A DNA stretch of 33,904 nucleotides, from positions 1 through 33,904 of IMG/VR virus record IMGVR_UViG_2541047875_000010. One strand, 5' to 3'. Both the position numbers and the translations under genes were made by a program. Positions within the stretch are counted from its first letter, which is position 1; the number at the start of each line of letters is the position of its first letter. Source of the stretch: a virus. Its lineage: Duplodnaviria > Heunggongvirae > Uroviricota > Caudoviricetes. Positions 14,269 to 14,422 of the stretch are shown piece by piece. The notes under the pieces are model-generated. The model did not search any database. It was not told the origin of the DNA and worked only from the letters and a program-made list of their open reading frames with translations.

Positions 14269-14344
14269 GGCCCTTTAGCTCAGTGGTGAGAGCGAGCGAC
14301 TCATAATCGCCAGGTCGCTGGTTCAAATCCAGCAGGGGCCACCA
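14269..14344 (+). tRNA. tRNA with CAU anticodon (tRNA-Ile2/ileZ-like; formally tRNA-Met by anticodon)
   Basis: GGCCCTTTAGCTCAGTGGTGAGAGCGAGCGACTCATAATCGCCAGGTCGCTGGTTCAAATCCAGCAGGGGCCACCA folds as a cloverleaf: 7-bp acceptor stem, GCTC/GAGC D-stem, anticodon loop CUCAUAA, TTCAAAT T-loop, encoded CCA; very similar to my recollection of E. coli ileX/ileY. Confidence 0.85.
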
Positions 14345-14345
14345 G

Positions 14346-14422
14346 CCGCCACTGGCTCATCGGGACAGAGCATCAACCTTCTAAGTTGATGGTATGGGGG
14401 GCGATTCCCGCTGTCCGCTCCA
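14346..14422 (+). pseudogene. degenerate tRNA-like sequence with intact Arg(UCU)-type anticodon arm
   Basis: D-arm GCTC...GAGC and anticodon arm TCAAC-CTTCTAA-GTTGA are intact and the CCA falls at the expected position, but T-stem and acceptor stem do not pair. Confidence 0.35.

Follow-up and report, generated by a model that had tools for sequence, protein, structure and literature searches.

The 77 nt that follow the tRNA-Ile(CAU) gene of an Escherichia coli prophage are very probably a non-functional fusion pseudogene, in which the 5' part of a tRNA-Arg gene is joined to the 3' end of a tRNA-Gly gene. The fusion would result from a deletion of 156/157 bp in an Ile-Arg-Thr-Gly array, leaving tRNA-Ile as the only useful member. 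We call the element non-functional, provisionally, on the basis of its structure and its conservation.

The tRNA locus between antiterminator Q and holin S

The window, that is, the whole stretch of 33,904 nucleotides that was analysed, is a lambdoid prophage of E. coli. Its segment 14200-14700 was 100% identical in 8 complete E. coli genomes (KC-Dl-1, A24, four FDAARGOS strains, GN05064 and GN04979). In the three genomes inspected, the prophage adjoined zur/yjbJ/dinF, no integrase was annotated at its zur end, and an IS21 within the lysozyme gene together with frameshifts indicated independent decay of the prophage. The tRNA locus lies within the late operon and is flanked by the genes for antiterminator Q and holin S, in agreement with the Q-S position given by the first-pass annotation. 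The features of the locus are the following:

12820-13191, + strand: antiterminator Q family gene (PGAP on the identical prophage L004, 16621-16992, offset 3801)
14230-14258, + strand: promoter-like element, TTGCAG (14230-14235), 17-nt spacer and TATTAT (14253-14258), read from the sequence
14269-14344, + strand: intact tRNA-Ile(CAU) gene of the ileZ/ileX type with encoded CCA (ARAGORN, Rfam and PGAP)
14346-14393, + strand: Arg-derived part, from an argN-like tRNA-Arg(UCU), with 5' acceptor strand CCGCCAC, D arm, anticodon arm and the beginning of the variable loop (43-45/47 to the intact Arg(UCU) genes of L012, L013 and L014 and to the L005 chimera)
14394-14401, + strand: scrambled junction ATGGGGGG (alignment with E. 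coli E7-1N7, L005, and with intact clusters)
14402-14422, + strand: Gly-derived part, comprising the remainder of the T loop, 3' T-stem strand CCCGC, 3' acceptor strand TGTCCGC, discriminator T and CCA (match to tRNA-Gly(UCC))
14423-14708, + strand: conserved non-coding spacer from the tRNA cluster to holin S (85-89% identity to the post-Gly spacer of L001, L002, L005, L006 and L007)
14630-14650, + strand: intrinsic-terminator-like hairpin GCCCGCTTTGCGGGC and T run, inside the preceding spacer (terminator scan)
14709-14924, + strand: class II holin gene S (PGAP, L004 18510-18725; same frame in the list of open reading frames)

The interval between Q and the holin gene differed between relatives, which carried stx (L001, L003), TerB/DUF3927 genes (L012) or a Rha-family gene (L013). 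This variation fits the earlier description of the locus as a hotspot of cargo exchange, but the chimera, a deletion scar, is not by itself evidence of such exchange. Comparison of the 1.1-kb spacer between Q and the tRNAs with the phage collection returned short matches only (the 3' end of the Q gene, the sequence just downstream and the STnc100 region). Conservation with phage relatives began at approximately 14222-14230 in BLAST comparisons.

The gene at 14269-14344 was the sole tRNA called by ARAGORN in the whole window. It is 76 nt long, with the anticodon CAT at 14302-14304 (position 34). Rfam (RF00005) returned a full-length match to model positions 1-71 with a score of 70.3 bits, against a gathering score of 29, and PGAP labelled the identical gene as tRNA-Ile in the 8 complete genomes. 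The 3' end reads GGGGCCACCA and hence encodes CCA, so the first tRNA is intact, as had been noted from the letters. Sequence identity was 75/76 to ileZ of an Stx2 phage, likewise 75/76 to other prophage alleles, and 69/76 to K-12 ileX, whose anticodon arm is the same. A full-length tRNA with a CAU anticodon that is homologous to ileX/ileZ and not to tRNA-Met, it belongs by sequence with tRNA-Ile2. Its acceptor strands GGCCCTT and AGGGGCC form the pairs C4-G69 and C5-G68, which are TilS determinants; pair 6-67 is a U-G wobble where relatives have U-A. The tRNA is probably expressed from its own promoter-like element and, we infer, would read AUA after lysidine modification.

The promoter-like element TTGCAG-17-TATTAT stops 10 nt short of the 5' end of tRNA-Ile. 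It has 8/12 matches to the consensus, placing it under the cut-off of the scan tool. Both hexamers and their spacing are kept upstream of the Ile gene in L002, L003 (an Stx2 phage), L006, L007 and L014. A 'pS tRNA promoter' has been named in the q-stx2 interval of O157 phages (PMC2858043). On these grounds, the element probably drives transcription of the tRNA array.

Structure and composition of the second element

Aligned in register with its intact relatives, the second element occupies 14346-14422 (+), 77 nt, and reads CCGCCAC-TG-GCTC-ATCGGGACA-GAGC-A-TCAAC-CTTCTAA-GTTGA-TGGTA-TGGGG-GGCGATT-CCCGC-TGTCCGC-T-CCA. The D stem (GCTC/GAGC) forms 4/4 pairs and the anticodon stem (TCAAC/GTTGA) 5/5 pairs around the loop CTTCTAA, with TCT at 14380-14382; CCA is found at 14420-14422, corresponding to positions 75-77. 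The acceptor strands CCGCCAC and TGTCCGC form 2/7 pairs and the T stem 3/5, and the T loop reads GGCGATT in place of the TTCGATT of relatives, so that T54 and Psi55 are lost. The contrast drawn earlier between a sound D arm, Arg(UCU) anticodon arm and CCA on the one hand and failing acceptor and T stems on the other was therefore correct. A register shifted by one base, which the first-pass annotation had used, gave 5/7 acceptor pairs, but it was rejected: it needed a 3-nt connector, and its cloverleaf was 14.7 kcal/mol worse than the minimum-free-energy fold.

Scanning likewise gave no canonical tRNA here, with no call by ARAGORN and a sub-threshold, local Rfam match. No Arg tRNA was called by ARAGORN in the second element at default, 95, 90, 80, 70 or 60% thresholds. 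Relaxed thresholds gave spurious calls only, at other coordinates or on the opposite strand. The Rfam tRNA match covered model positions 8-63 and scored 22.7 bits, below the gathering score of 29, with E = 0.026 in a 501-nt search. No cloverleaf was present in the minimum-free-energy fold (z = -0.12 against shuffles), and the best cloverleaf that could be drawn had -11.0 kcal/mol against -25.7 kcal/mol for that fold. Compared with the canonical tRNA of RF00005, the element departs in score, acceptor stem and T arm and conforms in its D and anticodon arms.

In the BLAST comparison with phages, the region fell into two separate matches. Ile-Arg or Ile-'Lys' clusters aligned with query positions 1-190, which hold Ile and the 5' portion of the second element, and a tRNA-Gly with the spacer that follows it aligned with query positions 174-499. 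Every nucleotide of the 48-nt Arg-derived part was found in at least one intact allele, and this part has no unique mutation. At the other end, window 14403-14422 matched tRNA-Gly(UCC) at 18-19/20 positions (19/20 in L001, L002, L006 and L007, whose tRNA-Gly(UCC) is 75/75 identical to K-12 glyT). A C-to-T change at 14414 distinguishes the acceptor strand TGTCCGC from the TGCCCGC of glyT. Homology ran unbroken from the Gly-derived part into the post-Gly spacer of relatives, and both pairwise and multiple alignments showed the window to be collinear with four-tRNA clusters on either side of a single gap. Between the two parts, the junction at 14394-14401 stands in place of the GCGGGTT of a clean chimera from E. 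coli E7-1N7, and destroys the 5' T-stem strand and T54/Psi55. No template for the junction string GGTATGGGGGGCGA was found elsewhere in the window.

With parts that match Arg(UCU) and Gly(UCC) and with syntenic flanks, the second element is no chance resemblance to a tRNA. Judged by these alignments, its CCA, T arm and 3' acceptor strand are the 3' end of a tRNA-Gly(UCC) and not that of an Arg gene.

A deletion within a four-tRNA array

In lambdoid prophages of E. coli, the direct progenitor type is an array of four tRNA genes, Ile(CAU)-Arg(UCU) or 'Lys'(UUU)-Thr(UGU)-Gly(UCC), carried by PhiR47_1 (PV340566), PPompW phages, CFSAN029787, 214-4, 504838 and 2015C-4136CT1. The flanks of this array are syntenic with the window (Ile 75/76, spacer 85-89% and holin gene 91-94% in L002, L005, L006 and L007). 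Relative to the array, the window is 156/157 bp short, with Arg joined to Gly and Thr missing; it is a deletion derivative and no full member. The Thr and Gly genes of the prophage arrays are identical to host K-12 genes (76/76 to thrU and 75/75 to glyT). In the host, glyT and thrU lie in the thrU-tyrU-glyT-thrT-tufB operon and ileX stands alone, whereas the window retains only the last ~21 nt of a glyT-type gene.

We propose that the progenitor of the window carried the four genes Ile(CAU)-Arg(UCU)-Thr(UGU)-Gly(UCC) between Q and holin S. By alignment, a single deletion of 156/157 bp has brought ~48 nt from the start of the argN-like Arg gene up against the final ~21 nt of the glyT-like Gly gene, with loss of the 3' third of Arg, the whole of Thr and the 5' two-thirds of Gly. 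What remains is the 5' two-thirds of Arg, as far as its variable loop, followed by the T arm, 3' acceptor strand and CCA of Gly. The deletion may have arisen from slippage during replication or from unequal recombination, with the stretch from anticodon arm to T stem in Arg and its counterpart in Gly as partners. In L013, the closest intact allele, a 26-nt direct repeat with 81% identity occurs at 1534-1559 in Arg and 1691-1716 in Gly, a start-to-start distance of 157. The missing 157 bp equal this repeat spacing, and unequal recombination or slippage would explain the product. An intact array spans 233 nt from Arg to Gly; minus 157 this is 76 nt, exactly the size of the E7-1N7 chimera and one less than the 77 nt of the window chimera.

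The chimera of E. coli E7-1N7 (NZ_CP134805, L005) shares its fusion partners and junction interval with the window, and was called neither by ARAGORN, whatever the threshold, nor by PGAP. Its fusion reads ...GTTGATGGTGCG followed directly by GGTTCGATTCCCGCTGCCCGCTCCA, with the crossover inside the shared TGCG(G). The Gly T arm (GCGGGTTCGATTCCCGC) and acceptor strand are unmutated in E7-1N7, giving 76 nt and 46.7 bits, whereas one additional base and about six changes bring the window allele to 77 nt and 22.7 bits. The upstream prophage backbone of E7-1N7 also differs from that of the window (unrelated regions, ~68% identity), and where the Arg halves of the two chimeras differ, intact alleles are polymorphic too. 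One shared deletion and two independent ones are both compatible with the data.

Rfam tRNA scores fell stepwise from 55.6-57.8 bits in intact Arg genes to 46.7 bits in the clean chimera (a local match without the acceptor stem) and 22.7 bits in the window chimera. Intact Arg(UCU) genes are well paired: all 13 distinct alleles from IMG/VR contigs had 7/7 acceptor pairs, 12 of the 13 had 5/5 T-stem pairs, and compensatory changes were seen in the acceptor stem (CCACCAC/GTGGTGG, CCGCCAC/GTGGCGG and CCGTCAC/GTGACGG). The failed stems and the lack of a cloverleaf in the window arise mainly because the two halves, and with them the two acceptor strands, stem from different tRNAs.

After the fusion, the window allele would have gained changes in the T arm (GC to ATG, TT to GG) and a C-to-T change in the acceptor strand. 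Decay by point mutation is real yet secondary, amounting to about six changes confined to the Gly-derived T arm and acceptor strand. Five of these lie within 8 nt of the junction, where uniform neutral decay would scatter them; the junction may have been made imprecisely or been struck by one complex event. Identity between the window and E7-1N7 was 75/76 for Ile, 69/77 for the chimera, 85% for the downstream non-coding spacer and 92% for the holin gene. This comparison indicates that Ile is constrained and that the chimera is diverging about as fast as non-coding DNA.

Distribution, alternative explanations and consequences

Roughly 3,000 E. coli genomes had a match to the locus. Among 5,426 complete E. 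coli genomes, 8 had the window allele and a further one that of E7-1N7; BLAST did not find the window allele in INPHARED phage records. We also searched for the junction pattern TCTAAGTTGA-N(8-14)-CGATTCCCGC, which had no match in IMG/VR and a single match, unrelated and by chance, in GTDB representative genomes. The metagenome collection yielded one true identical contig (L010) and two chance matches. An assembly artefact was ruled out, as the identical allele occurs in 8 independently assembled complete genomes and in this contig.

The four-tRNA arrangement was the dominant one, present in 160 of the 220 IMG/VR segments bearing the Arg/'Lys' anticodon arm, the remainder showing other truncations or losses. 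L105, L118 and L139 carried point-decayed second tRNAs with a mutated D stem and no ARAGORN call. Other breakpoints inside tRNAs comprised an IS-like end in the Gly T loop (L176, L203, L238) and the 5' half of tyrU (L036, L094). These sequences show a dynamic array, with the Arg::Gly chimera as one of several erosion products.

We consider it very unlikely that the hybrid is a functional non-canonical RNA, either a stable tRNA-like fragment that uses its intact D arm and Arg(UCU) anticodon stem-loop as an anticodon-nuclease decoy, or a signal in the processing of the tRNA-Ile ahead of it. The D and anticodon arms are perfect in both chimeric alleles and the changes hit the T arm; the allele is identical across 8 genomes, and phage tRNAs are known as counter-defence tools (PMC12409363). 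However, the fold is no better than that of shuffled sequences and disrupts the D arm, the overall divergence resembles that of non-coding DNA, and the chimera is rare (9/5,426 genomes for both alleles, 0 IMG/VR contigs). The same decaying prophage occupied the same site in the three genomes checked, so identity of the allele across genomes reflects common descent and not selection. We give very little credence, too, to the ideas that the hybrid is co-transcribed with tRNA-Ile and survives as a tRNA-like fragment whose intact Arg(UCU) anticodon stem-loop titrates an anticodon nuclease or a modification enzyme, that loss of an RNase P site alters the 3' maturation of Ile or, more broadly, that the repeats formed by anticodon arms and T arms make fusions a recurrent route of array shrinkage or remodelling.

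The first-pass annotation had compared the locus with the ileZ-argN-argO cluster of Stx phages, one member of which would have degenerated. The likeness is partial. The Stx-phage cluster (e.g. Stx2a_WGPS8, AP012540) is sited downstream of Q like the window locus, its first gene ileZ is 75/76 identical to the window Ile, and TTGCAG-17-TATTAT upstream is common to both. Its argN is homologous to the second gene, with 65/77 identity between the intact Arg allele and argN against only 50/78 to argO. In the Stx trio, argN has the anticodon TCG and is followed by argO with TCT and then by stx, whereas the window progenitor would have had Arg(UCU)-Thr(UGU)-Gly(UCC) and then the holin gene. Phage 933W is another carrier of the ileZ-argN-argO cluster. 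At the window locus, no argO-like sequence was found and the three-tRNA order is absent, Ile alone being intact. In the Stx phage phi467, there was no Arg remnant upstream of Thr, homology beginning at CCA and the spacer.

Of the earlier comparison, the ileZ-type Ile, the argN relationship and a dead Arg(UCU)-like copy are retained, but neither the trio with its argO nor decay in place. That one Arg gene of such a trio decayed in place by point mutations is contradicted by the alignments and extremely unlikely. An argN-homologous 5' part does stand right behind an ileZ-type gene as in Stx phages, some extra point changes exist in the T arm, and point-decayed second tRNAs are known in the other lineages mentioned above (L105, L118, L139). 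Against this, the last 20 nt match glyT at 19/20 positions and lead into the flank found after Gly in relatives; compared with syntenic clusters, exactly 156/157 bp have been lost and with them the entire Thr gene; and alongside the missing argO, the Arg-derived 48 nt are free of unique mutations. Exceedingly improbable, finally, is a scar of site-specific recombination, left by the entry and imprecise exit of an integrative element that targeted a tRNA 3' end: tRNA 3' halves are classical integration targets and other array breakpoints do fall within tRNAs (L176, L203, L238; L036, L094), but neither foreign DNA nor a duplicated tRNA 3' half was present, the missing segment corresponds to the Arg/Gly repeat spacing of 157 bp, and both flanks are contiguous with the array.

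A position downstream of Q is already familiar for lambdoid tRNA genes, which are regarded as rare-codon supplements (PMC3636060). In stx2i prophages, 'tRNA-pseudo-tRNA-Arg' has been contrasted with a complete Ile-Arg-Arg set beside stx (PMC13641118); the pseudo-tRNAs of that report are annotation differences only and no mechanism of inter-tRNA fusion is given, yet loss or decay of array members is already documented there. A limited literature search found no papers on ileZ/argN/argO or on the tRNA genes of 933W. The chimera is best seen as a fresh example of a known feature, a tRNA pseudogene in a prophage array, formed here by inter-tRNA deletion; it is an ordinary scar, with no new biology beyond that.

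Codon use in the prophage, per thousand, is 7.1 for ATA, 4.9 for AGA, 3.6 for AGG, 10.5 for ACA and 11.3 for GGA. The use of all these codons is lower in K-12, and the lost tRNAs would therefore have matched a real codon demand. The prophage lineage would now supply an AUA-reading tRNA only, its own genes for Arg(AGA), Thr(ACA) and Gly(GGA) having been lost. Genes of intact arrays lie 1-3 nt apart, and in such tight arrays RNase P cleavage at the next gene would nearly complete the 3' end of each preceding tRNA; the RNase P site after tRNA-Ile has probably been lost in the window.

In annotation, the 77-nt element that follows tRNA-Ile in this prophage would be recorded as a fusion pseudogene and should not be called tRNA-Arg. 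More generally, the locus illustrates how tight tRNA arrays may erode, by recombination between conserved arms of neighbouring genes that yields hybrids with acceptor strands unable to pair.

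Origin and erosion of the tRNA array

In related prophages, the array between Q and the holin gene S carries an Ile(CAU), an Arg(UCU) or 'Lys'(UUU), a Thr(UGU) and a Gly(UCC) tRNA. The Thr and Gly genes of two relatives (L006 and L007, both 1590-1743) were 100% identical to thrU and glyT of the host (K-12 locus L018, 1389-1830). In two IMG/VR contigs (segments L036 and L094), thrU was retained with the 5' half of tyrU behind it, and in one array the last gene was a Thr(GGU) tRNA. Both arrangements mirror the host operon order thrU-tyrU-glyT-thrT. Because of this shared order and the complete identity to thrU and glyT, sequence comparison suggests that the Thr-Gly module was captured from the host operon upstream of tufB.

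In the Arg::Gly fusion pseudogene, the window-specific changes were bunched at the junction (14394-14401), where the GCGGGTT of the clean chimera from E. coli E7-1N7 was replaced by ATGGGGGG. This cluster could reflect an imprecise junction or later mutation. A C-to-T change at 14414 created CUGUCC, complementary to GGACAG in the D-loop, and this pairing takes part in the predicted minimum-free-energy fold of the chimera. Other erosion products were found among the IMG/VR segments. The tRNA-Gly, fourth in the array, was severed within its T loop in L176, L203 and L238 (…GGTTCGATTCC/TGAAGTGGCACACTGAATTTGG…, the slash marking the cut), at what looks like an IS end. The 'Lys'-type second tRNA of L105, L118 and L139 carried D-stem mutations and received no ARAGORN call.

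Sequences flanking the tRNA genes and prophage context

The following features were found on either side of the tRNA genes:

13266-13296, plus strand: terminator-like hairpin AAACCCGTCGCAGAGCGGGTTT, then TGTTGTTTCT, 75 nt 3' of the Q stop codon
13963-14165, plus strand: STnc100 prophage sRNA family (RF02076), full-length match scoring 129.4 bits (gathering score 47)
~14484-14553: long-range inverted repeat GAATGATCGCC...GGCGATCATCC, within the spacer 14423-14708
14630-14650: strong terminator-like hairpin, ~58 nt 5' of the S start codon
16637-16921, minus strand: iss (serum-survival lipoprotein), cargo 3' of the lysis cassette
17410-17736, plus strand: TonB-family protein gene, cargo 3' of the lysis cassette

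The strong STnc100 match sits between Q and the tRNA genes, in an unannotated gap of 1.1 kb; the match is overlapped at 13963-14165 by a 140-aa ORF (13775-14197) that is probably spurious. PasD sRNAs have been linked to STnc100 (2026 preprint). A short PR' transcript may have the hairpin following Q as its tR'. The 286-nt spacer 5' of the holin gene (14423-14708, plus strand) was 85-89% conserved across phages and matched no Rfam family.

The prophage adjoined zur in all three complete genomes inspected (L004, L015 and L016), none of which had an integrase annotated at the zur end. The lesion differed from copy to copy: the lysozyme gene held an IS21, or a frameshift lay in the tape-measure or the methyltransferase gene.

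Anticodon switches to UUU in relatives

A switch to a UUU anticodon was seen in two separate tRNA bodies of the array, at the following loci:

L002, 1646-1722
L007, 1511-1587
L014, 1586-1661
IMG/VR segments L050, L066, L080, L084, L110, L177 and L226

The argN-like second tRNA often had the loop CCTTTAA, with C33 instead of the near-universal U33. This UUU form also contained an A-C mismatch in the T-stem, had lower Rfam scores (40-43 bits) and was at least as common in IMG/VR as the Arg(UCU) form (at least 120 versus 99 contigs). In some prophages, the thrU-identical third tRNA had changed from UGU to UUU. The switches may reflect selection for an extra or nuclease-resistant tRNA-Lys(UUU).
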